NCBI GenBank assembly: GCA_029263055.1
Contig: JAJCYG010000065.1
Span: 11,458 to 75,457, forward strand
Direction: 5' to 3'
From: Actinomycetes bacterium
GTDB lineage: Bacteria > Auribacterota > JAJCYG01
DNA length: 64,000 nt
The notes under the pieces are model-generated. The model worked only from the letters and a program-made list of their open reading frames with translations, searched no databases and was not told the DNA's origin. This document shows positions 24,717 through 64,000 of the stretch, piece after piece. Made by a program: the position numbers and the translations under genes. Each line of letters opens with the position of its first letter. Position 1 is the first letter of the stretch.

Positions 24717-25484
24717 ATGTTTGCCATTTTCAGAGAGTTACGTCAATATCGTGAGTTGATCTGGAATTTGGTGGTTCGCAATTTGAAGATCCGTTACAAG
24801 GGGTCGTTCCTTGGTTTTTTTTGGACGCTGGTCAATCCCTTGTTCATGATGGCGATCTACCTTGTTTTTATCAAGCTGATGCGTTTTGAGATGAATCTAG
24901 CTGCCCTTTTAGTGGGGCTGATTCCATGGCAGTTCTTTGTCATGTGTCTGAGCGATTCAGTGGAGTCGATTACTGGGAATGCTAATCTGGTTAAAAAGAC
25001 TCCGTTTCCACGTTTTTTACTTCCACTCTCTATTGTGCTCGCTAACTTGGTGAATTTCTTACTTTCATTAGTGGTGTTGTTTCTCTTTTTGTTGATTTTG
25101 CAGTATCCGATCACGTTTTCCTTTCTCTGGTTGCCTCTGATTATTGGTATTCAATTCTTTCTCTGTTTGGGGCTCTCTCTTTTTGTGGCCTGCACACATG
25201 TCTATTTCAAAGACACACAACATATTTTATCGGTGGGTCTCTTAGCCTGGTTTTTCTTAACCCCGATTATTTATCCACTCAGTATTATTCCTGAAAACTA
25301 TTTGAAATGGTTTTTGTTTAATCCCATGGCATCAATCGTGGGGCTGTACCGACAAGCATTGTTGGGCATTTCCTCAGTCTCCATTCTTTCGTTAACACTC
25401 TGTTTATTAACAACAGTGGTGTTTTGTTTTGTTGGATTAAGCCTTTTTCGAAAATATGAACCTGATTTTGCGGATGAACTGTAA
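24717..25484 (+). CDS. ABC-2 type polysaccharide/O-antigen export permease (Wzm/TagG/KpsM-like)
   Basis: It has six predicted TM segments and the LKIRYKGSFLGFFW ABC-2 N-terminal motif. An ATPase gene follows directly. Confidence 0.7.
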   Translation: MFAIFRELRQYRELIWNLVVRNLKIRYKGSFLGFFWTLVNPLFMMAIYLVFIKLMRFEMNLAALLVGLIPWQFFVMCLSDSVESITGNANLVKKTPFPRFLLPLSIVLANLVNFLLSLVVLFLFLLILQYPITFSFLWLPLIIGIQFFLCLGLSLFVACTHVYFKDTQHILSVGLLAWFFLTPIIYPLSIIPENYLKWFLFNPMASIVGLYRQALLGISSVSILSLTLCLLTTVVFCFVGLSLFRKYEPDFADEL

Positions 25485-26695
25485 TGAATGCAATTGAAGT
25501 ACAAAATTTAACCAAGTCATTTAAAAAACGATCTCAAGGGGGTCATTCACTTAAGGGAATGGTTTTGGATTGGGTGCGTTCAAATAAAAAGAAGGAGGAC
25601 CATCTTTTTACCGCACTTAAAGACCTTTCATTTGATGTTCAGCAAGGGGAAGTGCTTGGTATCATTGGTTCCAATGGAGCAGGAAAAAGTACTCTACTCT
25701 CAATTTTAGCTCAAACCATGCGTCCGACAACCGGAACCGTTTCTGTGAAGGGGCGTGTCTCTTCTTTGTTAGAGTTGGGAGCTGGTTTTCATCCTGATCT
25801 AACTGGACGTGAAAATGTATTTTTAAATGGTTCGATTTTAGGCTTAACACGCAAACAGATTGAAGAACGTTATGAAAACATTGTTGAGTTTTCAGAGTTG
25901 CGTGAGTTTATGGACACCCCAGTGAAACATTATTCTTCAGGCATGTATGTGCGTCTTGGTTTTGCTGTGGCCGTTGAAGTCGATCCTGATGTGTTGTTGA
26001 TTGATGAAGTCTTAGCTGTAGGAGATGAAAAGTTTCGCAAACGGTGTTTGGCTAAGATTGAAGAGTTTCAACAAAAGAAAAAAACCATGTTAGTGGTGTC
26101 TCACGATTTAGAAGTGATTACAAAGATCAGTGATCGCGTTTTAGTCTTAGATCATGGCCAAGTCTTAAAAGTAGATGACCCGCAACGTGCTGTGGATGAA
26201 TATAAAAGTTTAGGTTTTGTGCGCGAAGGGGCTGTGGTTAAAAAAGAAGTGGGGACCAAGCAGATTGAGATTGAAACCGTCCGGTTTTTAGATGAAGCAG
26301 GCAATGAGACCGATCAAATCGAATCAGGGCATTCGCTTAAACTAGAAATTCAGTTTCGAGCCAATGAAGAGGTGCAAGACCCTGCATTTGGATTTGGGAT
26401 TTCAAGCATGGATGGAAAACTCTGTTTTGGAACCAATACCATTAATGAAGAGGTGAAGATTGATTCGGTTAAAGGGACTGGAGTGATTCAAATCCAAATT
26501 GAAAAATTGAATCTACTCCAAGGGAAATATTATTTCTCCTTTTCTTCTCATTCACGCGATCATAAAACCCAATACCATCGTTTAGACCATTATCATGAAC
26601 TTTTTGTTTCAAGTAAGCGAAAAGCTGAAGGAACAGTTCAATTAGAGTGTCAGTGGGATTTTCAACAAAAGGAGAAAAGTGTTGGAAACATTTGA
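25484..26695 (+). CDS. ABC transporter ATP-binding protein (Wzt/TagH-like) with C-terminal extension, possibly a glycan-binding domain
   Basis: The Walker A GSNGAGKST, the LSGGM-like signature and the Walker B LLIDEVLAVGD are present. A ~150 aa beta-rich C-terminal tail resembles that of Wzt. Confidence 0.85.
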   Translation: MNAIEVQNLTKSFKKRSQGGHSLKGMVLDWVRSNKKKEDHLFTALKDLSFDVQQGEVLGIIGSNGAGKSTLLSILAQTMRPTTGTVSVKGRVSSLLELGAGFHPDLTGRENVFLNGSILGLTRKQIEERYENIVEFSELREFMDTPVKHYSSGMYVRLGFAVAVEVDPDVLLIDEVLAVGDEKFRKRCLAKIEEFQQKKKTMLVVSHDLEVITKISDRVLVLDHGQVLKVDDPQRAVDEYKSLGFVREGAVVKKEVGTKQIEIETVRFLDEAGNETDQIESGHSLKLEIQFRANEEVQDPAFGFGISSMDGKLCFGTNTINEEVKIDSVKGTGVIQIQIEKLNLLQGKYYFSFSSHSRDHKTQYHRLDHYHELFVSSKRKAEGTVQLECQWDFQQKEKSVGNI

Positions 26696-27089
26696 AATTA
26701 AAACACCGGGTGTGGATGTTAAGAAGATCATGGATGATATCCAATCCAAAATTAAAGAGAAAAAAGAACAAGGCGTTTACAACCAATACAGCCTGGACCG
26801 CGTAACCCGGCTTGAAATTGAGAACATTAAGGGCGATGTCGAATACCTGCAATGGTTGATGAAGGTGATGAACCAGAGTTGGGACATTAATATTGGCGAC
26901 CCTCAGATTGTGAATAAAGGGGGATTGTTAGGCAAGCCTGAGATGTGGCTTAAAAAAATTATTTGGCATCTGCTTAAGTTTTATACTTACCGGATGTTTT
27001 CTCAGCAAAAAGAATTTAATTCTCAAACTGTGATGGCTTTAGGGTTGCTTTCAAAACGGATTGACCAGCTCGAAGAGAAAAGTAAATAA
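26679..27089 (+). CDS. Hypothetical protein (136 aa)
   Basis: The ORF overlaps the wzt end by 17 nt and has no family assignment. Confidence 0.3.
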   Translation: MLETFEIKTPGVDVKKIMDDIQSKIKEKKEQGVYNQYSLDRVTRLEIENIKGDVEYLQWLMKVMNQSWDINIGDPQIVNKGGLLGKPEMWLKKIIWHLLKFYTYRMFSQQKEFNSQTVMALGLLSKRIDQLEEKSK

Positions 27090-28292
27090 ATGAGTTCCTT
27101 TCGATTGGCATTTATCACACCTCGTTATTTACCCAAGTCTGCAGGCGGGGCAGAAGTGCATGCGCAGCTATTAGCTGAGCGGGTGGCTGCAGATGGCCAT
27201 CAAGTTGATGTGCTCACAACATGCGCACGCGACCACTACACTTGGGAGAATTATTTTAAAAAGGGAACTGAAAAGATTAATGGAGTCACGGTTCACCGGT
27301 TTGAAGTTAATGAAGATCGAAAGATCGAGCAGTTCCATTCTATTCAGAGTCGCATTTCTAATCGCCAACCGGTTTCACCTGAAGAAGAGGTGCAATGGAT
27401 TGAGGGGAGTGTGAAGAGTCAGGCTCTAGAAGATTATATTCAATCCAATCATCAAAACTATGACTTTCTCATCTGCATTCCTTATCTTTTTGGAACCACC
27501 TATTGGGGTTCTAAGCTTTATCCTGAAAAAACATTGTTGATTCCTTGTCTTCATGATGAATCATTTGCTTATCTCTCTATTTTTAAGGAAATGTTTCAAT
27601 CGGTTAAAGGATTGATGATGAACACGCTTCCTGAAATGGCTCTAGCCAAACAATTATACGAGCTTCCTGATGAAAAATGCACGATTGTGAGTTTGGGTTT
27701 TGAAAAGGGGAGAACTGTTGGCCATGAACTGTTTCGTAAAAAGTTTAAAGTGAATGATCCTTATCTTTTGTTTGCAGGACGCCGTGAAAAAGGAAAGAAT
27801 GTCCCGCTTTTAATTGAAAACTTTAGAGCGTATAAGAAGCAGAATCAAAATAATTTAAAATTAGTGTTGTTGGGGAGTGGTGCGGTTGATCTTCTTCCTG
27901 AAGATGAGGGGAATATTTTTGACTTTGGGTATGTGAGCGAAGATGAAAAGATCTCTGCTTCTGAAGGGGCGCTTGCTTTTTGCCAGCCTTCGATTAATGA
28001 GTCGCTTTCTATTGTGGTTTTAGAGTCGTGGCTCAAAAAAGTCCCTGTTTTAGTGCATGCGGATTGTGCCGTGACCAAAGCACACTGTGATGGTTCTAAT
28101 GGCGGACTCTATTTCAAAAACTATTTTGAATTTGAAGAATGTTTGAACTTTTTAGTTCAAAACCAAGAGACGGCTAAAAAAATGGGGGAGTATGGTTGTC
28201 AGTATGTGGAGCAATTCTTTAACTGGGAAAGCGTGATCAAGCGTTTTAACCAATCATTAGAACATTTTAGTTCTCCAGTAGGCCAAACTTAA
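27090..28292 (+). CDS. Glycosyltransferase family 4 (GT-B fold)
   Basis: The N-terminus PKSAGGAEVHAQLLAERVAADGHQVDVLT and the C-terminal E..S..VLES nucleotide-sugar binding region are typical of GT4. Confidence 0.65.
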   Translation: MSSFRLAFITPRYLPKSAGGAEVHAQLLAERVAADGHQVDVLTTCARDHYTWENYFKKGTEKINGVTVHRFEVNEDRKIEQFHSIQSRISNRQPVSPEEEVQWIEGSVKSQALEDYIQSNHQNYDFLICIPYLFGTTYWGSKLYPEKTLLIPCLHDESFAYLSIFKEMFQSVKGLMMNTLPEMALAKQLYELPDEKCTIVSLGFEKGRTVGHELFRKKFKVNDPYLLFAGRREKGKNVPLLIENFRAYKKQNQNNLKLVLLGSGAVDLLPEDEGNIFDFGYVSEDEKISASEGALAFCQPSINESLSIVVLESWLKKVPVLVHADCAVTKAHCDGSNGGLYFKNYFEFEECLNFLVQNQETAKKMGEYGCQYVEQFFNWESVIKRFNQSLEHFSSPVGQT

Positions 28293-28293
28293 G

Positions 28294-29355
28294 ATGCAAA
28301 TCGATCAATACCTTCCAGGGGTTGCTCCTGGAGATGCGGTCACAACCCATGCTTTAGAAATTCAAAAGACACTTCAATCATTTGGAGTCACCTCTAATCT
28401 TTATGCACCCAAGCAGCATGTTGAGCCTGCTTCAGAACATCTCTGCCGTGATTACCGTGAAGCAACTAAAAATGGGGCGGCTGATTCCACGCACCTTTAC
28501 CACTTTTCAATTGGTTCTGAGCTTTCTGAATTTGTTCCTGGTTTAAAAGGGAAGAAAGTAATGATCTATCATAATATTACACCGCACACCTTCTTCTTAA
28601 AGTTTAACAATGAAAAAGCTTTAGCTGCCTATGTTGGGCGTGAACAACTGGAAACATTAGCTAATAAATTTGATTTAGCTTTAGGCGATTCTGAATACAA
28701 CCGAAAAGAATTAGAAGCCGCTGGTTTTAAACAAACAGGAGTATTGCCGCTTTTTATTGATGCCCATGATTGGGATTCACCGGGTGAAGACTCTGTTCCT
28801 TTAGATGATGGCTTTGTGAACTTTTTGTTTGTGGGGCGTTTTGTGCCAAACAAAAAATTCGAAGATGTGATTAAAACTTTTTATACGTATCAAAAAACAA
28901 TTGAACCTCGATCCCGTCTTTATTTGGTAGGACCTACTGATAGTTTTGATAAGTACAAAGTTTATCTTCAATGTTTAGTGGAAACATTAGGGGTTGAAAA
29001 TGTCATTTTTACAGGACGCATTCCTACAGAAGAACGGAACCGTCTTTATAAAGAAGCTGATGTTTTTTTGTGCATGAGTGAGCATGAAGGGTTTTGCATG
29101 CCTCTTTTAGAAGCGATGCACTTTGGGGCGCCGGTTGTGGCCTATGACGCGGCAGCAGTTCCCGAAACCATGGGAGGAGCTGGGGTCTTAGTCAAAGAAA
29201 AGAATTTTCCTCAAATCGCAGAGATGATTCATCAGATTGTGTTGAACAAAGAATTGCGCCAACAAATTGTTGAAGGCCAGCGAAAACGCTTAAAAGATTT
29301 TGATCGTTCTAAGGTTCAGCAGCAGTTAAAAGACTATTTAGGACTAAAACGTTGA
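28294..29355 (+). CDS. Glycosyltransferase family 4-like (paralog of 29396-30469)
   Basis: FVGRFVPNKKFEDVI and EGFCMPLLEAMHFGAPVVAYD form an EX7E-type motif. It is highly similar to the next gene. Confidence 0.6.
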   Translation: MQIDQYLPGVAPGDAVTTHALEIQKTLQSFGVTSNLYAPKQHVEPASEHLCRDYREATKNGAADSTHLYHFSIGSELSEFVPGLKGKKVMIYHNITPHTFFLKFNNEKALAAYVGREQLETLANKFDLALGDSEYNRKELEAAGFKQTGVLPLFIDAHDWDSPGEDSVPLDDGFVNFLFVGRFVPNKKFEDVIKTFYTYQKTIEPRSRLYLVGPTDSFDKYKVYLQCLVETLGVENVIFTGRIPTEERNRLYKEADVFLCMSEHEGFCMPLLEAMHFGAPVVAYDAAAVPETMGGAGVLVKEKNFPQIAEMIHQIVLNKELRQQIVEGQRKRLKDFDRSKVQQQLKDYLGLKR

Positions 29356-29395: not shown

Positions 29396-30469
29396 GTGAT
29401 GCAAGTACATCAATTAGTACCAGGTTTGAGTGTGGGGGATGCGGTGACCAACCACGCGCTAGAGATTCAACAGATTTTGCGTGAGCTTGGGCATGAATCA
29501 AATATTTATTCAGTCTCCAAACATGTGAGCCCACATATGAAGTCTGCTTGTTTAGATTACAAGGAGCATGCCTCTAAAAGCTCTAAAGAAAATATTGCCT
29601 TATATCATTTTTCAACTGGCTCTGAATTAACTCCTTATTTTCAATCGTTACCTGATAAAAAAATGATGGTCTACCACAACATTACTCCGGCCCGTTTTTT
29701 TCAAGGCTTGAGTGAAGAAAAAGCAAAGAGTGTGGAAGAAGGGCGAACTCAGTTAAATCAATTGGCCACTTCTTCTGAAATCTCTTTAGGTGTTTCTGAA
29801 TACAATCGATCTGAATTAGAAGAAGCAGGTTACAAAAATACCGGTGTGTTGCCTCTTGTGATTGATCCTCCTAGTTGGGATGGTTCGATTAATGACTCAT
29901 TGTTAAAACAATATCGAGATGGAAAAACAAACATCTTATTTGTCGGACGAATCGCACCGAATAAGAAATTTGAAGATTTGATCCGAACCTTTTATTATTA
30001 TCAAAAAACAGTTAATCCAAATTCTCGTCTTCTTTTAGTGGGATCCCATATTGGCATGGAAAAGTACTATGCTTTCTTAAAAGCATTAGTCAATGAGCTT
30101 GATTTAAAAGATGTGGTTTTTTCAGGCCATGTCTCTGATGAGGATGTTCGTACTTATTATCAATGTGGCGATCTATTCCTTTGTTTGAGTGAGCACGAAG
30201 GGTTTTGTTTGCCTCTTTTAGAGGCGATTCATGTGGGATTGCCTGTGATGGCTTATGATGCGTGTGCCATTGGCGAAACCTTAGGGGGAAGAGGGGTTTT
30301 GATCAAAGAGAAGAACTTTCTTGAAATTGCTGAGTTGGCTGGTAAGATCATGGCTGATTCTGCTTTAACTGAGCAGATTGTGGCAGGGCAAAAAGAGCGT
30401 TTGAATGCTTTTACCCGTGAAAAAGTGGGGGAACGCTTGAAACATTATTTGGAGACGTTGACTTCGTGA
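29396..30469 (+). CDS. Glycosyltransferase family 4-like (tandem paralog)
   Basis: Same architecture as 28294-29355: EGFCLPLLEAIHVGLPVMAYD. Confidence 0.6.
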   Translation: MMQVHQLVPGLSVGDAVTNHALEIQQILRELGHESNIYSVSKHVSPHMKSACLDYKEHASKSSKENIALYHFSTGSELTPYFQSLPDKKMMVYHNITPARFFQGLSEEKAKSVEEGRTQLNQLATSSEISLGVSEYNRSELEEAGYKNTGVLPLVIDPPSWDGSINDSLLKQYRDGKTNILFVGRIAPNKKFEDLIRTFYYYQKTVNPNSRLLLVGSHIGMEKYYAFLKALVNELDLKDVVFSGHVSDEDVRTYYQCGDLFLCLSEHEGFCLPLLEAIHVGLPVMAYDACAIGETLGGRGVLIKEKNFLEIAELAGKIMADSALTEQIVAGQKERLNAFTREKVGERLKHYLETLTS

Positions 30470-31329
30470 AAGAAAAAGTGATTGTTTTTGGTGGTTCAGG
30501 GATGTTGAGTACTTCTCTAGTCCCGTTGCTTGAAGAAAAATATGAAGTCCATGTTTTTGATCGCAATGCATGTGATGTTTCAGATGCTGAAAAAGTTGAT
30601 TCAATCATTTCAGAAACCCAACCTAAGTGGGTCTTTAATTGCGCGGCTTATACCAAAGTCGATGATTGTGAAACCAATGTAGAACATGCGTTTAATGTGA
30701 ACCGTGAAGGCCCTCGAAATATTGCTGAAGCAGTTTCTCGAGTTAAGGGGGCTAAGATGGTTCATATCTCAACTGATTTTGTGTTTGATGGTTCTAAAAA
30801 AGAACCGTATACCGAAACAGATGAAGTGAGTCCTCAATCTGTTTATGGAAAGAGCAAGGAAGAGGGCGAACAGGCTGTTTGGTCTGTGTTGCCGCAACGT
30901 TCTTTAATTGTGCGTACAGCTTGGGTGTTTGGTGTGGGGGGTGGAAACTTTGTTGAGACCATGTTGAGCCTAGCTGAAAAGCATCCTGAGTTAAAAGTAG
31001 TGGATGATCAGGTGGGGCGTCCCACCTACACTAAAGATTTAGCTCAAGCCTTGTTACATTTAATTGATGTCAATGCCATGGGATGGGTTCACTTTGCTAA
31101 CGAAGGGGTTTGTTCGTGGAATGGATTCACACGCGGCATTTTTGAAATCGCAGGTATTGATATTCCTGTGAACAAAGTAACGAGTGCCGAGTTTGTGCGT
31201 CCAGCTAAACGCCCTAGTTATTCGGTGCTCGATACCACGCGTTACACAAAATTAACCGGTCAAACTATTCGACCTTGGCAAGAGGCCATTAAAGACTATT
31301 TAGAAGAAAGAACTAAAATAAAGGTATAA
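30466..31329 (+). CDS. dTDP-4-dehydrorhamnose reductase-like (RmlD family) sugar-nucleotide reductase
   Basis: The Rossmann motif VFGGSGMLS, the ~287 aa length and the YTKDLAQAL region are typical of RmlD. Confidence 0.75.
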   Translation: MKEKVIVFGGSGMLSTSLVPLLEEKYEVHVFDRNACDVSDAEKVDSIISETQPKWVFNCAAYTKVDDCETNVEHAFNVNREGPRNIAEAVSRVKGAKMVHISTDFVFDGSKKEPYTETDEVSPQSVYGKSKEEGEQAVWSVLPQRSLIVRTAWVFGVGGGNFVETMLSLAEKHPELKVVDDQVGRPTYTKDLAQALLHLIDVNAMGWVHFANEGVCSWNGFTRGIFEIAGIDIPVNKVTSAEFVRPAKRPSYSVLDTTRYTKLTGQTIRPWQEAIKDYLEERTKIKV

Positions 31330-32443: not shown

Positions 32444-32747
32444 ACAGTTTATTGTGTTGTCGATGATTGTTGTTGTGTCAGGGTGTACAGGAGTCGATAA
32501 ACGACCTGTTCAGCCGATTTCATCTCTTGCCTCAAGACGGGGTCAAGATGGTTCCAATCAAATGTTAAAAATACCTGCCGAAATCATTCATCAAAGTGGT
32601 GAAGGGTTTGTTTGGGTGATTAAAGAACTTCTTTCACCTTTTAATGCACTCCGAAAAGGGATGGTAAACGCTTTTGGCGTGACTGAAGAATCAAGCGTTA
32701 AAGAAAAGAGCTATCCCCCTTCTTTAAAAAGATACGATTCTCAATAA
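32427..32747 (+). CDS. Small lipoprotein, hypothetical
   Basis: It has a lipobox VVSGC after a hydrophobic N-terminus and no family assignment. Confidence 0.35.
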   Translation: MSKWVKQFIVLSMIVVVSGCTGVDKRPVQPISSLASRRGQDGSNQMLKIPAEIIHQSGEGFVWVIKELLSPFNALRKGMVNAFGVTEESSVKEKSYPPSLKRYDSQ

Positions 32748-50704: not shown

Positions 50705-50714
50705 GAGGGCGGAT

Positions 50715-55069: not shown

Positions 55070-58000
55070 ATGAAAAACGAATCAAAGTGGTCCTCTTTAT
55101 TTGATCTGAGTTTGATTTTTCTTTTTGGACTCTTGCCTTTAACTTGGTTTGTAGCAAACCATTTTATTCTTTCAGTTGATTCAAATCTTCCATTTACATT
55201 TGAGCGTTGGATTAACGAAGTCTTTTTTAGTTGGGACACGCACCTTCGAGCAGGGTGGTCGCCTCGGATGATTGAATCGACGCATTTCTTTTTCTTTGTG
55301 CAGTGGTTTTTTCAGTTTTTAGGGCTTGATTTATTAGGCGCACAACGAGCTGTTTTTGTTTTTTGGTTTATGTTGCCTGGATTTACTCAATACTTTTTTC
55401 TTCGATATCTTTTTCGAGACATGCCTCCTGTCGCCAAGCGACTAGCCTGTTTAGCAGGGGTGATGTTTTATATGTTTAATCTCTATCTAGAGCCGATTTG
55501 GTTAGGATTGAATGTGAGTAATTTGTTGGGATATGCGTTTCTGCCTTTATTACTTCGGATTTGGGTTCAAGTTTTAGAAGAACGTCGTTCCCCTGTGTTG
55601 TACGGCTTTTTATTTGCTTTGGTCTCTATCATGGCCTCAGGAATTGCCACAAATCCTGCCAATGTCTTTGTTTGTTCTATTCCTTTTTTTATTTTTGCTG
55701 CGATTGCTTTAGTTAAAGGCTTTAAAACAAAGGGTGGGGTGATTCATCTTATTTTATTCCTCTTTTTTACTCTGTTGTTTTCTCTGTTGTTTAATGCTTA
55801 TTGGATATTAACGGAATGGCAAAAAGTTTTTGTGACTTCTTTTGATTCAACAAAAGCAGCTGGTGAGGGCTTTATTGTTGAAGCATGGTTAGAAGGGGTC
55901 TCTAGGTACACGAGTTTTACTAATGTGATTCGTCTGTTAGGGAGTTGGACTTGGTTTGCTTCTCCTCGGGCATACAATACCTTGATTTTAACCAATCCAA
56001 TTTTTGTCATTTTTAGTTGGTTGGTTCCTGTCTTTGGTTTAATTGGACTGTTCTGTAAGACTCGTTATCGTTCTTTGTTTGGGGTCGTGCTTGTTTTAGG
56101 CATCATTCTCTCTATGGGAATCCATTTTCCTTTTAAACATGTTTATATGTGGATGGTGGAGCATGTCCCATTCTTTTGGTTGGTAAGAAGTCCTTGGTAT
56201 AAATTTATGATCTTAACTTGTTTGGGCTATTCATATTTTTTTGGAGTGGCTGCGGCTAAAATTTATCAGTGGGGAATGACGCCAAGTCGCAATCCTAAAA
56301 GGCGACGGCGTTTGACTTTTGCTGTTGTCTTTTTAGTGATTTTTCTTTCACCTATTTATGCGTTTCCTGTTTCTTTAGGAAAAATGTTTTTAAAACCAGA
56401 AGAGTCTAGTTATACAAATCATTTTCAAGTTCCTGAGTATGTTTATCAAACGAGCGATTATCTGAATAAAAAACCTGGGAATAATCGTATTTGGTCTCTG
56501 CCTGGAAAAGGTTTCTTCATGAATAACTGGGGCTTCTCTGGTTTTTCACCTTTTTTACCGTATGAGGTTTCCAAACCGATTCTTTACACAGATCACAACT
56601 TATCGATCCCTATTTCAGAGCAATGGCTCTCAGCTATTTCTCATCCCTTTCACATTATTCAGAATAGCTTTGAAAAGCAACTCACCCCTAATTTGTACCG
56701 AGTCTTAGGTCTTTTTAATGTAGATACACTTGTGACTGAAAATGATTTTAAATTCGCAGCATTGCCAGTTCCTTATTCTAAGAAAGAAATGAGTGACTCG
56801 GTTGAATTGCTTTGGGGAGTGGATAAAGAAAAATCATTTGGAGAATGGGATGTTTATCAATTGGCTCAACCTCAGCCTCTGATTTATAAAACTCAATCTG
56901 TTAATTTTGTTGAAGATCACATCGATGCACTGGTTCCTCTTTCAAATACAAACCAGTTAAATCGTTCTGCTTCATTTTTTGCTGAAGATTTGTCTGATAA
57001 GCAAAGAAACCTTCTTTTTCAAGACCAGGAAGTGAAGCACTTGGTTTTAAATAATCGATCCTGGTTTGATTTGGCTGTTGATTTGATGGAGCCTATTGAA
57101 AAAGTTCGCCTCTCTTTTGATAAAAAAGAGATTCCAGCCATTGAAATTAATGTGTCTGAAACAGGCTTTTATTATTTCTATGCGACTGCAGGTCGATCTA
57201 TAGGCTGGACGCGGCCTCGGCCTTTAGTCGATAAGCAGGAACTGGCTCAGACCCTTCCTGTGCAGTGGAGTCCTAATCTATTAGAAAAAGAGAATTGGCT
57301 TTCTGTAAACCAAATTCAAATTAAGCCAGTTTTATTTCAAGATCGTCCTAAAAAAGAGATGAATCAAGCGATCAAATGGGAAATGGTGGGGCAGCTTTAC
57401 TTGGAAGAGGGAAAACAGGAGCTTCGAGTAGAAGGATGGCAGCCAGACAAAGGGAATGTGACTGTTGCGGTTGTGCCTAAAGAAGAGGCTCAAGTCAAGC
57501 TGAGTCGCGTGCAAGAGCTCTATAAGAGTTCAACACTTTCTGTTTCTCAGTTCTTATCAACAGATTCTGCTTGGAGGCATGGGGGATGGGCACAAACCGA
57601 TCCTGGATTAGTGTCTCCTGATCCTGCTGTTAAATGGAAGCTAGCTGGCGTTTTTGAAAAATTGTTTGAGTTTCAAGGTTCTTCTCAGTGGCATCAATTG
57701 AGGCATGATGATATTGCGCTTGAGATTGAGAACAATCAGAAAGAATTGAAGCAGACTCGATTGGCTTTTAAGGTACTTTCCATTCAACCGACTCAAAGAG
57801 AAATTTATGTTTTTTTAAATGGAGAGCGGATTCAAAAGCTTAACGTTGAACCGATGGAAGAGTTAGGGGTTTCTGTTTTATTACAGCTAAATCCAGGTTT
57901 GAATAAAGTGCATTTTCAAACAAATGGATCGCCTGAGCCAATCAGTAAATTCTATAAAAATGATGATGAGCGTAGAGTGATTATGCTGGCAAAACAAATT

Positions 58001-58654
58001 GAGATAGGGCACCTTTCTTTTGTTTCGGATCTTTACTTGCCTGAAAGAGAGTCTTTTGTGGTTCGAGTCTATCCTTTTCGAGTACAAAAAGAGAGGGATC
58101 CTGAATTTTCAGATTTAAATAGAACGTTGAAGATTAATAACAAAGCTCTTCCTTTAAAAATGACAAAAGGGGAGTTTGGAGCACCTTATTGGGAGTCTGC
58201 CCAGCTTCATTCTTTTTCTGGAAAAAGAGTAAAGATTGAGTTTAAAGAAAGAGAAGGAAATCGTTATTTTATTGAAGTTCTTTCGGGGCAACCTGCTTCC
58301 CTTGAGAATGAGTCCCTTGTTGAGTTTACTCGACTTAATCCAACTAAGATTGAAGGGAGCCTTCAAACCAACAAGCCTGAATGGTTTATCTTTAGTGAAT
58401 CGTTTGATCCTCGGTGGGTTCTTTTGATTAATGGAAAAGAGTTTTTGCCCATTAAAGTAAATAGCTATGCCAATGCTTATAAAATTCCTTCTACAAATGG
58501 AGAGGTTGTTTCATTTGAATTGGAGTTTGGGCCTCAGAAGTGGATGTGGCGAGGCATTCGAATCTCTTTAGCCAGCTTGGCAGGATCGACTTTATTTGTT
58601 TTGATCTTATTGCTTTTTAAACGCCACTATCGTAGAAAAAAGTACACTCAGTAG
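55070..58654 (+). CDS. AftD/DUF3367-like GT-C family membrane protein (paralog 2 of 3)
   Basis: Same architecture and N-terminal motifs as 51316-55068. Confidence 0.5.
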   Translation: MKNESKWSSLFDLSLIFLFGLLPLTWFVANHFILSVDSNLPFTFERWINEVFFSWDTHLRAGWSPRMIESTHFFFFVQWFFQFLGLDLLGAQRAVFVFWFMLPGFTQYFFLRYLFRDMPPVAKRLACLAGVMFYMFNLYLEPIWLGLNVSNLLGYAFLPLLLRIWVQVLEERRSPVLYGFLFALVSIMASGIATNPANVFVCSIPFFIFAAIALVKGFKTKGGVIHLILFLFFTLLFSLLFNAYWILTEWQKVFVTSFDSTKAAGEGFIVEAWLEGVSRYTSFTNVIRLLGSWTWFASPRAYNTLILTNPIFVIFSWLVPVFGLIGLFCKTRYRSLFGVVLVLGIILSMGIHFPFKHVYMWMVEHVPFFWLVRSPWYKFMILTCLGYSYFFGVAAAKIYQWGMTPSRNPKRRRRLTFAVVFLVIFLSPIYAFPVSLGKMFLKPEESSYTNHFQVPEYVYQTSDYLNKKPGNNRIWSLPGKGFFMNNWGFSGFSPFLPYEVSKPILYTDHNLSIPISEQWLSAISHPFHIIQNSFEKQLTPNLYRVLGLFNVDTLVTENDFKFAALPVPYSKKEMSDSVELLWGVDKEKSFGEWDVYQLAQPQPLIYKTQSVNFVEDHIDALVPLSNTNQLNRSASFFAEDLSDKQRNLLFQDQEVKHLVLNNRSWFDLAVDLMEPIEKVRLSFDKKEIPAIEINVSETGFYYFYATAGRSIGWTRPRPLVDKQELAQTLPVQWSPNLLEKENWLSVNQIQIKPVLFQDRPKKEMNQAIKWEMVGQLYLEEGKQELRVEGWQPDKGNVTVAVVPKEEAQVKLSRVQELYKSSTLSVSQFLSTDSAWRHGGWAQTDPGLVSPDPAVKWKLAGVFEKLFEFQGSSQWHQLRHDDIALEIENNQKELKQTRLAFKVLSIQPTQREIYVFLNGERIQKLNVEPMEELGVSVLLQLNPGLNKVHFQTNGSPEPISKFYKNDDERRVIMLAKQIEIGHLSFVSDLYLPERESFVVRVYPFRVQKERDPEFSDLNRTLKINNKALPLKMTKGEFGAPYWESAQLHSFSGKRVKIEFKEREGNRYFIEVLSGQPASLENESLVEFTRLNPTKIEGSLQTNKPEWFIFSESFDPRWVLLINGKEFLPIKVNSYANAYKIPSTNGEVVSFELEFGPQKWMWRGIRISLASLAGSTLFVLILLLFKRHYRRKKYTQ

Positions 58655-61651
58655 GCTGGTAATCAATCCAATAAGTGTTAGTAGCCAGAAGAGGTCAAAC
58701 CACTTTTGCGGCGTGAAGTCGAGCAAGACCGTAAAGCTTCCTGTCTGATCAATGTAATAACCGTTTGCAAATCCATTTGCCTTACCGTGAATATTAAAAT
58801 AATGATTTTCCCCATCTATGATTGTTGAAGCTTTCCAATAAGGGTGGTAAGACTCGGAAAAGATAAGCACAAATGGTTTTTCTGTTTTGACTTTAATTTG
58901 ATGTTGAGTTGAAGAAATCATTTCGTGGCTTAAATCGGTCTTTTCTTCTTTAGTTGAAAATGAAGCTTTAGCTGTTCGGCTCAATTCGATAAAGTAGTTA
59001 TCTTTTCCTGATTGTTCTACGAGTAATTGTTTGTTTTTATCGTTAAGATTAAGTGTTGCTTTAAAGTGGTCTACCTTTGAGTTGTTTGCCTTCTTAAGAG
59101 ATATTTTATTCTGATCTAACCATGCAAAAGGTGAGGCGCTTCCTTGTGGGGGATAGATTTTAAGTTGCACACTCTCTTTTTTAGGTTGTTCTAGTGGGAC
59201 TTTAAAAGAGATTGTGCCGTATTTAAATGAGTTTTTGTTTAATCCAAAGCTTGTCCCGAAACCTCCCCATCCAGAATGTTGAAATGGAGAATAAAAATGG
59301 ATTTTATTTTTACCTGGTTTTAACTCAATTTTTTTAACAAGAAGAGAGGTTATTTGATCCGCTTTTAGTTGAACAATTCTAAGGTTTTTTCCATCTTGTT
59401 GAACGTAAAATGAACGATCATTTTCTAGACTAAACACATCAAAAGAAAAGTTAATAAAGATTGTTTCTTGGGTGGGATTATTAAAGTAGATGCCATCTGT
59501 ATTCCCATCCCACCAGGTCCAGGTAATGTTGTCTTCGATTTTTAAAGGAACATGGTTTAAAAACTGGATGTCCATTTTGATTTTTTGGTGTAGTTTTTTG
59601 TTATTAGGGCTTTCTTCAATAATCACAGCTTCCAGATTTTCGCTGTTTACGACAAGGCGGTTGTCATGCGAAAAAACAGAATCGATTTTTGTGGCTTCAG
59701 CAAGTTTAAAACTAGAATCAGGGTTTAAGAAGAGTGCCTCATGTTCTTGGGGATGATTTTGAAAGGTCCACCAAGTGAATAAGGAAGTGTCTCCATTTAA
59801 GAGCAATGTATTTTTAGGGGAGGCAGCATAAATAAATGGAGTGATGCTACTTGTTTCATAAAATTGCCATTCACCAAATAACTGGCTTTGCTTGATCCCT
59901 TTTTGTTTATTTAGTTTGCTTTCAATAAATTTAGGATCATCTCCCAAAACATAGCCAAGCCCCTTGTAGAAGTCATACCGAATATCTTTTTCATGTAAAA
60001 GGTACTTGATTTGAAATAAGCTTAAAAGCTCTTCAGCGTAAGGAGTGGTTTCATTATAAATTTGATAGCGTATGGCTTCTAACAGTTCCTTGCCTTGGTT
60101 AATCGGGCCTTGTGCTGTGAGTGTGTAGTGGTGATGGTGAGGGAATGCCAAATTCTTAGAAGAAAACTCATTTGAAAAAGAACCATAGTTTGTCCCCCCC
60201 CAATTATAAATATAGGGGTTGTCACCAGGCAGAGTGAAGTAACGAAAAAAGCCTGGCTGATCATCTAGCCACTTTGATGCTTTAAAGACATAGTCAGGGA
60301 TTTCAAACCGATTTGGAGAAAGAAACTTTCGAGTCTCTTTAGCATGAAAAAACTTTCCTGTTGTGATTGGAAAGGCATAAACCAAATTGCTTAAACAAAG
60401 GAGAGTGATTAAAGTAATGCCGATTGCTTTTCTCTTAGACGTTATTTTATAAATTAAATGACACGCTGCGCCAAACAATACTGCGTAACCTAGGCAGACC
60501 CAGAAATAAAATTTTAAATAAGGACTTCTGAAGATCCAAAACAGAGGCATATTTTCAGTTAACCAAATATAGAGAGAACCAAATGGAGCATGGGCACCCA
60601 TTGAAAGAAAAATACCGGTGAGGGTTAAAAAGATAAATGTTTTCCGAAATGAGATTGATTTGTTCCAGCAACCGATTAAAGCCATTAAAGGGACTATCCA
60701 GCTCAGGCAGTAGAGAAATGTTTTAGGGGCATAAGAAGATGAGTAAGAACGATACGGATCCACACATCCTTGATACCAAGTCCAATCACCTAAGGTGCGA
60801 ATCACATTTGAGAAACTAGTATAAATACTCATTCCTTTTAACCAGCCGATTAGTTCTGCTGGAGTTGCGATTTCACCCCCCATTTTTAAAATTGCATTTC
60901 TATAGATTGCCATGGCTTGAGGAAAGAGCCAGTAGATATTGGCACAAAGCCAAATGCAAAGAAGCGCCAAGGTTTTAAATGTTAAAAGTTTAAACAGACC
61001 AAAGTTTTTCCATGCTTTGCCGCGAATAAAAAAGGAGATAAAGACAATAATGATTGGAGCAACCGACGCGCCAAATTCAGAAGGATTATTTCCCATCCCT
61101 GAAGCGAAAAAAGAGACTAAGAAATAAAGGGCCGCTCCAAGAGAAAACTTAATTTCACCTCGAAAGATTTGAATGCTGAGTGCGAGTAAAATAGGAACCA
61201 GTGCATAGGCTGTGATAAGTGGGGGCTTAAACCCAATCCAAACATTTTCAAGCCAGAGGTTAAAAAGGTAAAAGCTCAGTCCGCCTAAGCGAAAGATGAG
61301 AGAGCCGGGTCCTTTGTAAAGCGTGCGTAGCAAATAAATAATCCCAAAACCAGCCAAGGTGTACCAAAAGACAAACATGATTTTTTGAGTGGAGAGAAGT
61401 GAGAGTCCCCATTCTTGCAATAAGGCAGGTAAAAGCATCATGGGCATCAAGCAGTTATCAAAAATCAGTTCGCTTCCAGTGTTCCATCCATGATGCCAAA
61501 CTGAGAAGAGGGCCTTCCATTTGTCTAAGGTATAAGGCAAGCGGACATCTTCTGCTTTTAAAATCTCATTTCCCTCAAACCACAATAGGGGAACAAGTCC
61601 GCAAAGCAAGACAACTAAGAAGTCAATATTTCGAATAAAACGGTTCTTCAT
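58607..61651 (-). CDS. AftD/DUF3367-like GT-C family membrane protein (paralog 3 of 3), on the opposite strand
   Basis: Same architecture. Its 3' end overlaps the 3' end of 55070-58654 by 48 nt, so both C-terminal TM anchors are encoded in the same DNA. Confidence 0.5.
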   Translation of the reverse strand: MKNRFIRNIDFLVVLLCGLVPLLWFEGNEILKAEDVRLPYTLDKWKALFSVWHHGWNTGSELIFDNCLMPMMLLPALLQEWGLSLLSTQKIMFVFWYTLAGFGIIYLLRTLYKGPGSLIFRLGGLSFYLFNLWLENVWIGFKPPLITAYALVPILLALSIQIFRGEIKFSLGAALYFLVSFFASGMGNNPSEFGASVAPIIIVFISFFIRGKAWKNFGLFKLLTFKTLALLCIWLCANIYWLFPQAMAIYRNAILKMGGEIATPAELIGWLKGMSIYTSFSNVIRTLGDWTWYQGCVDPYRSYSSSYAPKTFLYCLSWIVPLMALIGCWNKSISFRKTFIFLTLTGIFLSMGAHAPFGSLYIWLTENMPLFWIFRSPYLKFYFWVCLGYAVLFGAACHLIYKITSKRKAIGITLITLLCLSNLVYAFPITTGKFFHAKETRKFLSPNRFEIPDYVFKASKWLDDQPGFFRYFTLPGDNPYIYNWGGTNYGSFSNEFSSKNLAFPHHHHYTLTAQGPINQGKELLEAIRYQIYNETTPYAEELLSLFQIKYLLHEKDIRYDFYKGLGYVLGDDPKFIESKLNKQKGIKQSQLFGEWQFYETSSITPFIYAASPKNTLLLNGDTSLFTWWTFQNHPQEHEALFLNPDSSFKLAEATKIDSVFSHDNRLVVNSENLEAVIIEESPNNKKLHQKIKMDIQFLNHVPLKIEDNITWTWWDGNTDGIYFNNPTQETIFINFSFDVFSLENDRSFYVQQDGKNLRIVQLKADQITSLLVKKIELKPGKNKIHFYSPFQHSGWGGFGTSFGLNKNSFKYGTISFKVPLEQPKKESVQLKIYPPQGSASPFAWLDQNKISLKKANNSKVDHFKATLNLNDKNKQLLVEQSGKDNYFIELSRTAKASFSTKEEKTDLSHEMISSTQHQIKVKTEKPFVLIFSESYHPYWKASTIIDGENHYFNIHGKANGFANGYYIDQTGSFTVLLDFTPQKWFDLFWLLTLIGLITSLLSVLFSTIVAFKKQ

Positions 61652-61867: not shown

Positions 61868-63532
61868 ATGTATATATTAGGAATTACAGCCCCAATTTCA
61901 TGGAACAATGCCGCAGCTCTGATTCAAGATGGTAATGTCATCGCTGCTGCTGAAGAAGAGCGATTTAACCGGGTTAAGCATGCGCCTCGGACACCTCCGA
62001 TTGAAGCGATTAAATTTTGCCTCGACTTTGCCAAAATTGATCTTTCTCAAGTTGATACGATTGCTGTTGGGTTTAAAAGTCCTTTAGCCTATCTTCCTAT
62101 TTCACAATGGACAGAACTTCGTCGAGGATCGGTTCCTAATGCGATTGCTCAATTTGGAGCTGTTGCAGAATATGCGATTTTACTTCAAAAATTAAAGCGT
62201 CAGTTGGCCCAAATTTATGGTGAAATTCCTCCTACATTAAAGTGGGAATTTATTCCTCATCATATTGCACATGCAGCTAGTGCTTATTATGTTTCTGGTT
62301 TTGATAAAGCCAACATTATTAGTTTGGATGGAAATGGAGAGGATGATTGCGGTTTGTTAGCTTATGGTCAACCTTCAGGAATTGATCCGATTCATAAACT
62401 TTCATTGTCTGATTCGATTGGCGAGTTATTTGGAACGTGTACTGATATTTTGGGTTTTCGCAAACATAGTGATGAAGGCAAGACAATGGGATTGGCTGCG
62501 TTTGGAAGTCCTCAATATTTAAAAGATGTGGTTAACTTTAAGAATGGTGCGTTTACTTTAAAGAAGGGGTATGCAAACGAGTTGTGGAAGGAGTTTGGTC
62601 CGCGTCGTCCTCAAGAAGAAGCATTGAATGAGCGCCATAAAGATTTAGCGGCTTCTGTTCAGAGTGTGACAGAGCAAGTGGGGGTTCATTTAGCTCAAGG
62701 TTTAAAGAACAAAACAAAATCAGCTAACTTTTGTTTGGCAGGTGGGGTTGCTTTAAACTGTGATATGAATGCTCAGATTTTATTAAAAGGTGTGGCTGAA
62801 AATATTTTTGTTCAACCGGCTGCTCATGATGCAGGAACAGCTTTAGGCGCTGCTTATGAAGTGTATGTGCGTCGTGGAGGTCGTTCTAATTTTGTGATGG
62901 ACCATGCTTCTTGGGGGCCTGAGTATACTAATGAAGAGATTGAGCATGTTTTGCGTGAATCTAAATTAGAATACACGCATCATAGAAATATTGAAGAAGT
63001 GGCTGCTGAGAGTTTGAAAAATGCCAAGATTTTAGGTTGGTTTCAAGGGCGTATGGAATGGGGGCCACGTGCATTAGGGAACCGTTCTATTTTAGCCAAT
63101 CCGGCGATTCCTCAAATGAAAGAAAAAGTAAACCGCGAAGTCAAACACCGAGAGAACTGGCGTCCGTTTGCACCTGCGATTTTAGCTGAAGAAGTGAAGA
63201 ATTATGCGGATGGGGCTTACCCTTCTCCTTTTATGTTGCTCTTCTTTCATGTTTTTAAAGAGAAGCAAAAAGATTTAGCTGCTGGGATCCATATTGATGG
63301 AACAGCACGTGTGCAATCTGTAACTGAAAAAGCAAATCCTACTTTTTATCGTCTGCTTCAAGAAATGCAGAAGAAGACAGGGGTCCCTTCAGTAGTGAAT
63401 ACTTCTTTTAATGATCGTGGAGAACCGATTGTGATGAGTCCGCGGCATGCGGTGCGCACATTTTTTGCGACCGGGCTGGATGAACTCTTTATTGGTAATT
63501 ACCGCATTGTTAAACCTGCAAGTGCTAAGTAA
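61868..63532 (+). CDS. Carbamoyltransferase (NodU/CmcH family)
   Basis: MYILGI...NAAAALIQDG...AAEEERFNRVKH matches the carbamoyltransferase N-terminal Kae1-like domain, and the ~550 aa length fits. Confidence 0.75.
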   Translation: MYILGITAPISWNNAAALIQDGNVIAAAEEERFNRVKHAPRTPPIEAIKFCLDFAKIDLSQVDTIAVGFKSPLAYLPISQWTELRRGSVPNAIAQFGAVAEYAILLQKLKRQLAQIYGEIPPTLKWEFIPHHIAHAASAYYVSGFDKANIISLDGNGEDDCGLLAYGQPSGIDPIHKLSLSDSIGELFGTCTDILGFRKHSDEGKTMGLAAFGSPQYLKDVVNFKNGAFTLKKGYANELWKEFGPRRPQEEALNERHKDLAASVQSVTEQVGVHLAQGLKNKTKSANFCLAGGVALNCDMNAQILLKGVAENIFVQPAAHDAGTALGAAYEVYVRRGGRSNFVMDHASWGPEYTNEEIEHVLRESKLEYTHHRNIEEVAAESLKNAKILGWFQGRMEWGPRALGNRSILANPAIPQMKEKVNREVKHRENWRPFAPAILAEEVKNYADGAYPSPFMLLFFHVFKEKQKDLAAGIHIDGTARVQSVTEKANPTFYRLLQEMQKKTGVPSVVNTSFNDRGEPIVMSPRHAVRTFFATGLDELFIGNYRIVKPASAK

Positions 63533-64000
63533 TGGGAGCGTCTGTTCCTGAATATTTTTTTGGAACAACTGATCCTGCTTTAAATCAAGCAATTTATTCT
63601 TCGTCTGCAAATGAAATCGAATCACTCTGTTCTAAGTATTTAAATAAACCTTTTAATGAATGTCGTTTGATTGATGTTGGTTCAGGCAATGGAGGCGTGG
63701 CAGAGCAGCTTGCAAAAAAAGCAGCTTCTGTTTGTGGATTGGAAGTGGTTCCAGCCCTTCACCAGCATGCGATTCAACGATTAAAAAAAGAGCCGCGAGC
63801 AAACTTAAATTTTACTTTAGGTAGTGTCTATGACATGCCTTATAAAGAAGAATTTGATTTGGCTGTTTTTTTAACGGCAATTGAACATATTAAAGAGCAT
63901 CATCTTGCCATTGAAAAGATTCTTCAATCACTCAAGCCTGGGGGGCTTTTATATTTAACCGCTCCAAATAAATTATGGCCAATTGAACAGCATTACAATC
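63532..64000 (+). CDS. Class I SAM-dependent methyltransferase, 3'-truncated by the window end
   Basis: An open frame runs from the ATG at 63532 (it overlaps the upstream stop as TAATG) to the window end. Motif I is IDVGSGNGGVAEQLA. This ORF is not in the supplied track because no stop occurs within the window. Confidence 0.5.
   Translation, partial: MGASVPEYFFGTTDPALNQAIYSSSANEIESLCSKYLNKPFNECRLIDVGSGNGGVAEQLAKKAASVCGLEVVPALHQHAIQRLKKEPRANLNFTLGSVYDMPYKEEFDLAVFLTAIEHIKEHHLAIEKILQSLKPGGLLYLTAPNKLWPIEQHYN

Follow-up and report, generated by a model that had tools for sequence, protein, structure and literature searches.

A probable composite cell-envelope glycan locus in an uncultured bacterial lineage, with triplicated AftD-like glycosyltransferases in a cassette shared across phyla

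The DNA described here (the window) is a stretch of 64,000 nucleotides from contig JAJCYG010000065.1 of assembly GCA_029263055.1. Between positions 24717 and 64000 it contains 28 back-to-back open reading frames (ORFs), nearly all of which have glycan-related domains in Pfam, NCBIfam, and PDB-sequence searches, and the block continues past the window end at 64000. These domain searches bear out a reading of the bare sequence (the original prediction) that had proposed a contiguous glycan-biosynthesis block at this site. The interpretation favored here, with moderate confidence, takes the block for a composite locus that serves the cell-envelope glycans of an uncultured, deep-branching diderm, was inherited vertically, and combines an export module (Module 1) with a module for periplasmic decoration (Module 2). 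The part that most deserves follow-up is a cross-phylum cassette that includes M512, a 512-residue membrane protein, and a triplicated set of enzymes related to mycobacterial AftD. Much of the comparison below draws on a relative (assembly GCA_040960375.1, contig JBFOMN010000578.1), whose Rho and Ffh are 86% and 78% identical to those of the window and whose glycan genes were recovered as two loci, L039 and L004.

Three neighboring genes encode membrane proteins of about 1000 to 1250 amino acids (aa) that are homologs of mycobacterial AftD at the level of both sequence and fold. The original prediction had omitted this homology, as well as a UbiA-family phosphoribosyltransferase and a CsgG-like secreted protein. 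Paralog 1 (51316–55068, plus strand; 1250 aa) and paralog 2 (55070–58654, plus strand; 1194 aa) are 29% identical over their full length, and paralog 3 (58607–61651, minus strand; 1014 aa) is about 30% identical to each of them. Paralog 2 matches the Pfam family GT-C_AftD with 43 bits (cutoff 26), and paralogs 1 and 3 score under the threshold. A profile of 22 sequences that includes paralog 1 matches the AftD structures 6W98 and 6WBX with an E-value of 2e-16. With an AlphaFold (AF2) model of paralog 2 (pLDDT 82, pTM 0.77) as the query, the top Foldseek match is again 6W98 (E = 2.5e-23), and PglB and AftA come next. An aspartate after the first transmembrane (TM) segment, D37, is invariant in the AftD-like family. 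Paralog 1 consists of an N-terminal TM block, an extensive soluble part, and a TM portion at the C terminus, and all three proteins share with AftD the N-terminal GT-C domain, the large beta-rich periplasmic region, and the C-terminal TM anchorage. They differ from AftD in that sequence identity is only about 12% in the structural alignment and the C-terminal helix is single.

Relatives of the three proteins among GTDB species representatives are 23–33% identical and come from other phyla only. In four Chloroflexota loci (L008, L016, L019, and L023), AftD-like orthologs stand in the same 1-2-3 order, so the triplication is older than the dispersal of the cassette among phyla. The structure of mycobacterial AftD was solved with bound acyl carrier protein (ACP). 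In the relative, positions 16593–20341 of L004 hold genes for a 404-aa protein, an MBOAT protein, a FabH-like enzyme, and an ACP, which lie between the third AftD-like gene and the carbamoyltransferase gene; this insert is not in the window.

The AftD-like genes are part of a larger recurring unit, which was delimited in two surveys: a tblastn comparison of the window proteins with the 30 GTDB loci in which AftD-like genes are present, and a metagenome scan seeded by M512, comprising 36 loci. The right half of the block recurs in genomes of Omnitrophota, Chloroflexota, and Nitrospinaceae and on metagenome contigs. The recurring cassette consists of a MOP-superfamily flippase, two GT2 enzymes, a radical-SAM enzyme, M512, a short-chain dehydrogenase/reductase (SDR), a GNAT acyltransferase, an aminotransferase, an AsnB-type amidotransferase, AftD-like proteins, and a carbamoyltransferase. 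Within the GTDB set, homologs of M512 (38–46% identity) are present in 10 loci, the UXS-like SDR (52–67%) in about 10, and the carbamoyltransferase (47–56%) in 11; AsnB, GT2, radical-SAM, GNAT, and ArnB-like genes recur as well. The metagenome loci typically have the two GT2 genes, the radical-SAM gene, and the flippase gene upstream of M512 and the GNAT, aminotransferase, AsnB, and AftD-like genes downstream. A proposal that goes beyond this conservation is that the right half is one copy of an undescribed multi-phylum cassette in which a cytoplasmic Arn-like route would equip polyprenyl phosphate with a 4-aminopentose in N-acylated or carbamoylated form, M512 would represent a new family of GT-C-like enzymes and initiate an aminopentose-containing polymer in the periplasm, and the AftD-like triplet would extend it; in this complete form the proposal is doubtful and is put forward tentatively.

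M512 (43164–44702, plus strand) is a polytopic protein with about 10–11 TM segments and a C-terminal soluble domain of about 110 aa, and it has no match in Pfam, NCBIfam, or the PDB. The family extends over several phyla (it is seen in the window and in loci L013, L016, L017, L020–L022, and L043–L078), and 38 alignment columns are invariant over 25 sequences, including the motif D30-x-W-R-H just after the first helix. The UXS-like SDR gene follows M512 in 10 GTDB loci. It follows M512 directly, at 53–67% identity, in 17 of the 17 closer metagenome loci (M512 identity of at least 37%) that have enough downstream DNA, and remoter M512 homologs (28–33%) have ArnB-like genes upstream. We infer that M512 may be a periplasmic transferase for a lipid-linked aminopentose, analogous to ArnT. 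Other affiliations of the protein were tried. Residues D30, H94, H175, and R339-Y340 of M512 lie near the published ORF12 positions D31, H106, H174, and R349-Y350 (PMC11127046), and for this reason M512 was considered as a member of DUF6044, which appears to be equivalent to GT136; the assignment was rejected, with no DUF6044 match and an hhalign probability of 0.5% against a DUF6044 protein. When M512 was compared with PMT_2, the AftD-like proteins, proteins encoded beside UbiA in Chondrinema and Legionella, plasmids, and PDB sequences, the outcome was either nothing or weak matches (probability 15–23%).

The genes that flank M512 include a set with clear parallels to the Arn system (PmrHFIJKLM) of Escherichia coli and Salmonella. 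The SDR (45666–46643, plus strand) is an extended SDR of the UDP-glucuronate decarboxylase type (UXS/ArnA-C-like), with PDB matches to human UXS1 (1e-60) and ArnA (1e-42). Aligned to UXS1, it retains ASTSEIYG, YxxxK, and an arginine at the position of UXS1 R277; the TSE, YxxxK, and arginine are presumably the decarboxylase catalytic set. Its NCBIfam scores are 202 bits for UDP-4-keto-pentose/UDP-xylose synthase (U4kpxs; cutoff 294) and 170 bits for ArnA (cutoff 777). An alternative assignment of this protein, to the lipid-pentofuranose epimerases of the ORF13 type, was considered and discarded, since identity is 22% and the epimerase of a phage contig described below has TTD, not TSE. The GNAT N-acyltransferase (46630–47622, plus strand; Pfam Acetyltransf_1, 43 bits) is WecD-like; its top NCBIfam match is the dTDP-fucosamine acetyltransferase WecD (64 bits, cutoff 219), and its gene sits between those of the SDR and the aminotransferase, coming after the SDR in cassette loci too. 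The aminotransferase (47573–48802, plus strand) is ArnB-like, the type that yields UDP-4-amino-4-deoxy-pentose. ArnB structures take the first four places among its PDB matches (9e-105 to 2e-86), ahead of the next PDB family at 4e-68, and the NCBIfam ArnB score is 424 bits (cutoff 631); by sequence comparison, ArnB is its nearest solved relative by a wide margin.

Functions for loading and moving lipid-linked sugars are encoded upstream of M512. The MOP-superfamily (Wzx/MurJ/MATE-like) flippase (38456–39754, plus strand) has about 12–13 TM segments and scores Polysacc_synt (39.5 bits) and MurJ (33.6 bits) above MatE (20.9 bits). Cassette loci L054, L059, and L060 contain homologs at 30–31% identity, and the family is also present in cassette copies without a UbiA gene. 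The first GT2 enzyme (39676–40599, plus strand; Pfam Glycos_transf_2, 107 bits) is a candidate polyprenyl-phosphate sugar synthase of the ArnC-like type: ArnC is its top NCBIfam match (75 bits, cutoff 529), with further matches to PpgS, AglJ, and dolichyl-phosphate hexose transferase. It has no C-terminal TM segment, and its homologs in cassette loci L022, L054, and L059 are 45–48% identical. The second GT2 enzyme (40596–41591, plus strand; Glycos_transf_2, 61 bits) has a C-terminal hydrophobic region, MftF as its top NCBIfam match (102 bits, cutoff 280), and homologs at 41–50% identity in cassette loci.

The likeness to the Arn system thus comprises an ArnA-C-like SDR, an ArnB-like aminotransferase, N-acylation of the amine, a GT2 with ArnC as the top match, a flippase, and a PMT_2-type GT-C, the family of ArnT. 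Unlike the Arn system, the window has a GNAT instead of a formyltransferase, lacks ArnD, and has a MOP flippase instead of the ArnE/F pair of SMR type; all scores lie under the equivalog cutoffs, and the Arn-like genes are associated with those for AftD-like GT-Cs and M512 in a multi-phylum cassette. No match to a formyltransferase (ArnA-N) or deacetylase (ArnD deformylase) family was found inside 24717–64000, and no SMR flippase (ArnE/F) in the block, where the flippase is of the MOP type. An echo of the 4-amino-4-deoxy-L-arabinose (L-Ara4N) pathway had been proposed originally. This is partly right: the ArnB-like call and the UXS/ArnA-C-type SDR stand, and the echo is reasonable as a statement of system logic, but membership in the Arn pathway fails on the missing formyltransferase, deformylase, and SMR flippase and on the scores.

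The remaining genes of the right half encode tailoring enzymes. The B12-binding radical-SAM enzyme (41621–43150, plus strand; Radical_SAM 59 bits, B12-binding 31.5 bits) has HpnJ as its top NCBIfam match (130 bits, cutoff 578) and homologs at 44–53% identity in cassette loci. The AsnB-type glutamine amidotransferase (48803–50704, plus strand) matches Asn_synthase with 346 bits, GATase_7, and the NCBIfam XrtA/PEP-CTERM amidotransferase with 642 bits (cutoff 817). A NodU/CmcH-type carbamoyltransferase is encoded at 61868–63532 (plus strand; Carbam_trans_N 169 bits, Carbam_trans_C 228 bits). Three S-adenosylmethionine (SAM) methyltransferases had been claimed for the block, and two, both of class I, were found: one at 50652–51326 (plus strand; Methyltransf_25, _23, and _31), which is not in L004 of the relative, and one at 63532–64000 (plus strand; LIDVGSGNGG; Methyltransf_11, 60 bits), which is truncated by the window end.

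The left part of the block (24.7–32.7 kb), all on the plus strand, has the composition of an ABC-export locus. The permease Wzm (24717–25484), an ABC-2 component of a glycan exporter, has six hydrophobic segments and matches ABC2_membrane with 71 bits; its top NCBIfam matches, galactan Wzm and KpsM, are both under cutoff. The ATPase Wzt (25484–26695; ABC_tran 82 bits) has a C-terminal carbohydrate-binding domain (Wzt_C, 98 bits). Three GT4 glycosyltransferases follow (27090–28292, 28294–29355, and 29396–30469, with Glycos_transf_1 scores of 71, 105, and 87 bits), of which the second and third are paralogs with 52% identity. The dTDP-4-dehydrorhamnose reductase RmlD (30466–31329) exceeds its NCBIfam cutoff (TIGR01214, 311 bits, cutoff 224; Pfam RmlD_sub_bind, 316 bits). 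A DegT-family sugar aminotransferase (31334–32443; DegT_DnrJ_EryC1, 418 bits) has PseC as its top NCBIfam match (268 bits, cutoff 423) and is 36% identical to the ArnB-like aminotransferase of the right half. Two small ORFs have no Pfam or NCBIfam match and no assigned function: one of 136 aa (26679–27089), with a 137-aa gene at the equivalent place in L039, and one of 106 aa with a single hydrophobic segment (32427–32747), which is also called as a gene on the Logan contig L001. The family assignments originally made for Wzm/Wzt, the three GT4 and two GT2 enzymes, RmlD, the two DegT aminotransferases, the Wzx-type flippase, the B12-binding radical-SAM enzyme, the GNAT, the AsnB amidotransferase, and the carbamoyltransferase all hold in profile searches.

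This part shares with ABC-transporter-dependent O-polysaccharide systems of the E. coli O9a type (PMC11127046) the presence of Wzm, the Wzt nucleotide-binding domain, Wzt_C, and GT4 enzymes in one operon. It differs from them in that the window has no recognizable WbdD-like coiled-coil terminator, WecA, or WaaL. Neither a WbdD-like kinase nor a coiled-coil chain terminator was recognized anywhere in the window; with Wzt_C present, the two SAM methyltransferases are candidate chain-terminating enzymes and could supply a chain-end cap.

In the favored interpretation, Module 1 (24.7–32.7 kb) would assemble a polymer at the cytoplasmic face through the three GT4 enzymes, with sugars from RmlD and the DegT aminotransferase; Wzm/Wzt would export the polymer, and the C-terminal domain of Wzt probably reads a chain-end cap. 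Module 2 (38.5–63.5 kb, together with divergent GT-C genes at 32.7–37.3 kb) would decorate or extend a glycan in the periplasm from polyprenyl-phosphate donors. UDP-glucuronate would be converted to a UDP-4-keto-pentose by the UXS/ArnA-C-type decarboxylase and then to a UDP-4-amino-4-deoxy-pentose by the ArnB-like aminotransferase. The GNAT would acylate the amine, and further groups would come from the carbamoyltransferase, the amidotransferase, the methyltransferases, and the B12-radical-SAM enzyme. A GT2 would load the sugar on polyprenyl phosphate, the MOP flippase would carry it across the membrane, and M512 and the three AftD-like GT-Cs would transfer or polymerize it. The main donor would be an N-acylated, possibly carbamoylated, 4-aminopentose, and a second donor of the ribofuranose type, made by an inserted phosphoribosyltransferase, would serve one of the GT-Cs. 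The broader original claim, that an ABC-transporter route, lipid-linked periplasmic glycosylation, and many tailoring enzymes are joined in one surface-glycan locus, is supported by the gene content.

Several observations weigh against this scheme. The window contains no initiating phosphoglycosyltransferase, O-antigen ligase (WaaL), Wzy, or Wza/Wzc; the absence of the phosphoglycosyltransferase and the ligase is weak evidence because such genes are often encoded elsewhere. Also missing from the window are Ugd, RmlABC, a phosphoribosyl-lipid phosphatase, and DprE1/E2. As for substrate identity, the Arn-like proteins all score under NCBIfam equivalog cutoffs, and enzymes of the UXS type usually carry the 4-keto intermediate on to UDP-xylose by reduction, so that the aminotransferase would be bypassed. 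For M512, homology to a GT-C is at most hinted at: alignments with GT-C families by hhalign reach probabilities of 15–23% and are confined to the soluble domain after the TM segments, and a single-sequence model of the protein is unusable (pLDDT 46). Lipid A-core, protein, peptidoglycan, and free lipid are all candidate acceptors, none of which is singled out. The comparison with the relative covers the two ends of the locus, on either side of a middle part at about 27–44 kb.

The inserted gene encodes a UbiA-family polyprenyl-phosphate phosphoribosyltransferase (DPPRS/PPPRS; 44641–45579, plus strand) of 312 aa without an extra domain. The protein scores above two NCBIfam cutoffs (NF008977, 285 bits, cutoff 234; NF008978, 217 bits, cutoff 207) and has an NDLVDAQKD motif (NDxxDxxxD). 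Its gene is present in L004 of the relative at 80% identity and missing from all 66 cassette loci (30 GTDB and 36 metagenome loci; tblastn of the GTDB loci), and its position between M512 and the SDR reflects an insertion specific to this lineage. Pfam scans of the block gave no match to a HAD or PAP2 phosphatase. UbiA-type synthases adjoin PMT_2/GT39-type GT-Cs in Chondrinema and Legionella, and on that analogy a PMT_2-discoidin or a Dpy19-like enzyme of the window, both described below, may use the ribosyl lipid.

A possible, though not likely, alternative gives this enzyme a central role: polyprenyl-phosphate ribofuranose, or an epimer, would be polymerized by the AftD-like trio into an arabinan- or riban-like periplasmic polymer of mycobacterial style, and the aminopentose would be a separate decoration. 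The equivalog-level phosphoribosyltransferase, the sequence and fold homology to AftD, and the occurrence of such transferases next to GT-C genes in Chondrinema, in Legionella, and on a phage contig all favor this alternative, and three-component pentofuranose systems are widespread (PMC11127046). The mycobacterial arabinan machinery (DPPRS Rv3806c/UbiA and AftD, 6W98) is matched in the window by these components but not by DprE1/E2, an Rv3807c-type phosphatase, Emb, AftA, AftB, or AftC. The window likewise lacks an ORF13-type epimerase (the SDR is 22% identical), a HAD/PAP2 phosphatase, and a DUF6044 GT-C of the type found on the phage contig. Since the UbiA gene is missing from every one of the 66 surveyed loci of the AftD-like/M512 cassette, the AftD-like enzymes cannot generally depend on it, and for the same reason their donor is probably not decaprenyl-phosphate arabinose.

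The phage contig (L042; MT837543.1, "Bacteriophage sp.", from a human fecal sample) is 6.6 kb long and carries at 898–5419 a full, unannotated pentofuranose set: a UbiA-type phosphoribosyltransferase, a HAD phosphatase, an SMR flippase, an SDR epimerase, and a DUF6044 GT-C (347 bits in Pfam). This set suggests phage-borne serotype conversion.

By analogy of gene content, the closest published logic to that of the window is found in the O1/O2 loci of Citrobacter youngae, where a backbone exported by Wzm and a Wzt with a carbohydrate-binding module (CBM) is combined with a polyprenyl phosphoribose synthase of the UbiA type, a MATE flippase, and a CBM-bearing GT-C by which pentofuranose is attached on the periplasmic side (Kelly et al. 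2024, PMC11127046). Features common to the window and these loci are Wzm, a Wzt that ends in a CBM, GT4 enzymes for the backbone, a UbiA-type synthase, a MOP/MATE-type flippase, periplasmic GT-Cs with C-terminal carbohydrate-binding domains, and an SDR adjoining the synthase. In contrast to C. youngae, it has no PRP (HAD) phosphatase domain or gene, its adjoining SDR is a UXS-type decarboxylase rather than an ORF13-type epimerase (22% identity), six GT-C candidates stand in place of one, and an aminopentose pathway is present in addition. It also departs from the three-component system in that no window protein matches DUF6044 even at E ≤ 1.

The six polytopic GT-C candidates are the PMT_2-discoidin protein, the Dpy19-like protein, the three AftD-like paralogs, and M512; the original count of at least three was correct about the presence of GT-C enzymes but fell short of this number. 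The PMT_2-type (ArnT/PMT-like) protein (32741–35395, minus strand) has about 10 hydrophobic segments in residues 1–370, an aspartate after the first TM segment (D32) that is invariant in the family, and two discoidin (F5/8 type C, CBM32-like) domains, with F5_F8_type_C matched twice. Its membrane domain has no Pfam match itself, and PMT_2 is matched by 30 of 37 sampled homologs; the protein can therefore be placed in the superfamily only, a placement that is silent on lipid A as the acceptor. Its N-terminal domain has 2789 representative homologs at E ≤ 1e-3, and discoidin domains occur in 29 of the 37 sampled; the fusion described as unusual in the original prediction is thus real, and the GT-C with it, but the architecture is common. 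The adjacent Dpy19-like GT-C (35417–37339, minus strand) has about 12 TM segments, a Pfam Dpy19 score of 31.7 bits (cutoff 27.2), and an additional weak STT3 match. Next to it is the gene for the CsgG-like secreted protein (37368–38183, minus strand; Pfam CsgG 37 bits, cutoff 20.8), which has an N-terminal signal-like hydrophobic segment. A Dpy19-like GT-C of about 675 aa is also encoded immediately upstream of coaE-rho on three other contigs (L036, 7284–9317; L037, 7181–9199; L038, 7340–9388), one from Auribacterota and two labeled "Chlamydiae bacterium", where genes for a type IV pilus secretin, PilM, and an Amuc_1100-like protein precede it.

Protein glycosylation, in which the PMT_2-type, Dpy19-like, and AftD-like GT-Cs act on secreted, S-layer, or pilus proteins, is an unlikely account of the locus. 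PMT_2 and Dpy19 are protein mannosyltransferase families according to their Pfam descriptions, a PilT gene is in the window and an O-antigen ligase is not, and pilin of Pseudomonas is arabinosylated by a GT-C that is fed by a UbiA-type enzyme (cited in PMC11127046). The lipid A-directed enzyme ArnT, however, is a PMT_2 member as well; no protein that could serve as the acceptor is recognizable; and Wzm/Wzt with Wzt_C and three GT4 enzymes is the signature of an undecaprenyl-carried polymer (PMC11127046), as the composite envelope-glycan interpretation has it.

The host of the locus belongs to a rare, very sparsely sampled, deep-branching lineage that is PVC-superphylum-like and not demonstrably chlamydial. 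Rho of the window clusters with a few sequences at 85–89% identity. The nearest named matches are metagenome-assembled genomes (MAGs) of Auribacterota/Aureabacteria (78–81%), followed by MAGs labeled Chlamydiae or Chlamydiota (74–76%) and then by one Omnitrophota MAG; in a neighbor-joining tree, the clade of the window lies outside the Auribacterota, Chlamydiae-labeled, and Omnitrophota sequences. Among 5.8 billion proteins, only five other Ffh sequences, at 73–83% identity, group with that of the window, after which identity drops to 61% or less, with matches from Clostridia, Negativicutes, Deltaproteobacteria, and Verrucomicrobiota. Neither the Rho nor the Ffh list of the top 120 matches includes a cultured chlamydial genus. 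The active-site cysteine of MurA is present in the window and was judged non-diagnostic; MurA of Chlamydia trachomatis presumably differs at this residue.

Chlamydiae are classically regarded as having a truncated lipopolysaccharide (LPS) only, and the original prediction had raised the prospect of an O-antigen- or capsule-like island in a member of that phylum, which would overturn this view. That a chlamydial genome is involved now looks improbable; at most, a very deep chlamydial branch is conceivable. The suggestion draws on the Chlamydiae or Chlamydiota labels of some Rho matches and on the gene order coaE-rho-rpmE-prfA-prmC-...-rpsP-trmD-rplS-rnhB, which is common to the window and two contigs of MAGs that bear the NCBI label "Chlamydiae bacterium" and which we take to resemble the order in C. 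trachomatis. The same order is found on an Auribacterota contig, however, and Auribacterota Rho is slightly closer. Mean identity over 8–9 syntenic housekeeping genes is about 54% to Auribacterota and to the "Chlamydiae" MAGs alike, and no named Ffh match is chlamydial. The "Chlamydiae" MAG contigs themselves bear type IV pilus secretin, PilM, and Amuc_1100 genes like the Auribacterota contig, and the labels on these two MAGs may be loose; PilT and NadA, in turn, are encoded in the window. With the chlamydial premise unsupported, the locus is what is expected in a free-living diderm, for which a locus of this kind is ordinary.

The evidence for vertical inheritance comes from composition and from synteny with the relative. 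Tetranucleotide profiles of the block and the housekeeping flank correlate at r = 0.985 (internal controls 0.976–0.980), GC content at third codon positions is 0.35 in the block and 0.33 in the flank, codon use is alike, and GC is flat throughout the window (0.36–0.42). In the relative, L039 has nadA, the desulfurase gene, the TPR protein gene, wzm, and wzt in the order of the window. Fifteen kb further on, L004 has genes for M512, UbiA, the SDR, the GNAT, the aminotransferase, AsnB, the three AftD-like proteins, and the carbamoyltransferase, with products 59–89% identical to those of the window. The window contains no tRNA, integrase, insertion sequence, or flanking repeat (its repeats are paralog pairs only) and no Rfam family. 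A check of GC and codon usage for horizontal transfer, called for originally, thus found block composition equal to that of the flank and no island signature. Recent horizontal acquisition is very improbable given this uniform composition, the lack of mobility features, and the occupation of the same site in the relative, although identities of 40–67% between cassette genes and genes of unrelated phyla do imply transfer at some past time.

The housekeeping flank (1–24.6 kb) holds the tail of an S41 peptidase gene, tsaD, a PilT-family ATPase gene, SufT, coaE, rho (8961–10328), prfA, prmC, murA, ffh (14101–15441), trmD, rplS, rnhB, nadA, and a gene for a NifS/IscS-type desulfurase. The ATPase at 2304–3362 belongs to the PilT/PilU family of type IVa pili (NCBIfam 427 bits, cutoff 319) and suggests twitching-type pili in the host lineage. 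At 4155–6038, a single ORF of 627 aa encodes an aldo/keto reductase domain that is fused at its C-terminal end to a chlorite-dismutase/HemQ-like domain. Directly upstream of wzm, at 21215–24664, lies the gene for a protein of 1149 aa in which a TM segment at the N terminus is combined with a TolB-like beta-propeller match and YbgF/TPR repeats. Its counterpart in GCA_040960375.1 (1042 aa) occupies the same place, followed there too by the wzm-wzt pair, and the protein may belong functionally to the envelope locus.

AftD-type enzymes are known from the mycobacterial cell wall, where they are of interest in a drug-target context. Here they form a conserved triplet in several uncultivated phyla, tied to ArnB/UXS-like genes, a carbamoyltransferase, and a conserved membrane protein that has no annotation anywhere. 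The window also illustrates how a lineage can add a module for a phosphoribosyl-lipid donor to periplasmic glycosylation that is already in place. If the proposal for the cassette is true, Omnitrophota, Chloroflexota, Nitrospinota, and the lineage of the window would share an envelope glycan of a novel class, and characterization of the cassette could reveal both a new periplasmic polymerization chemistry and a new glycosyltransferase family.

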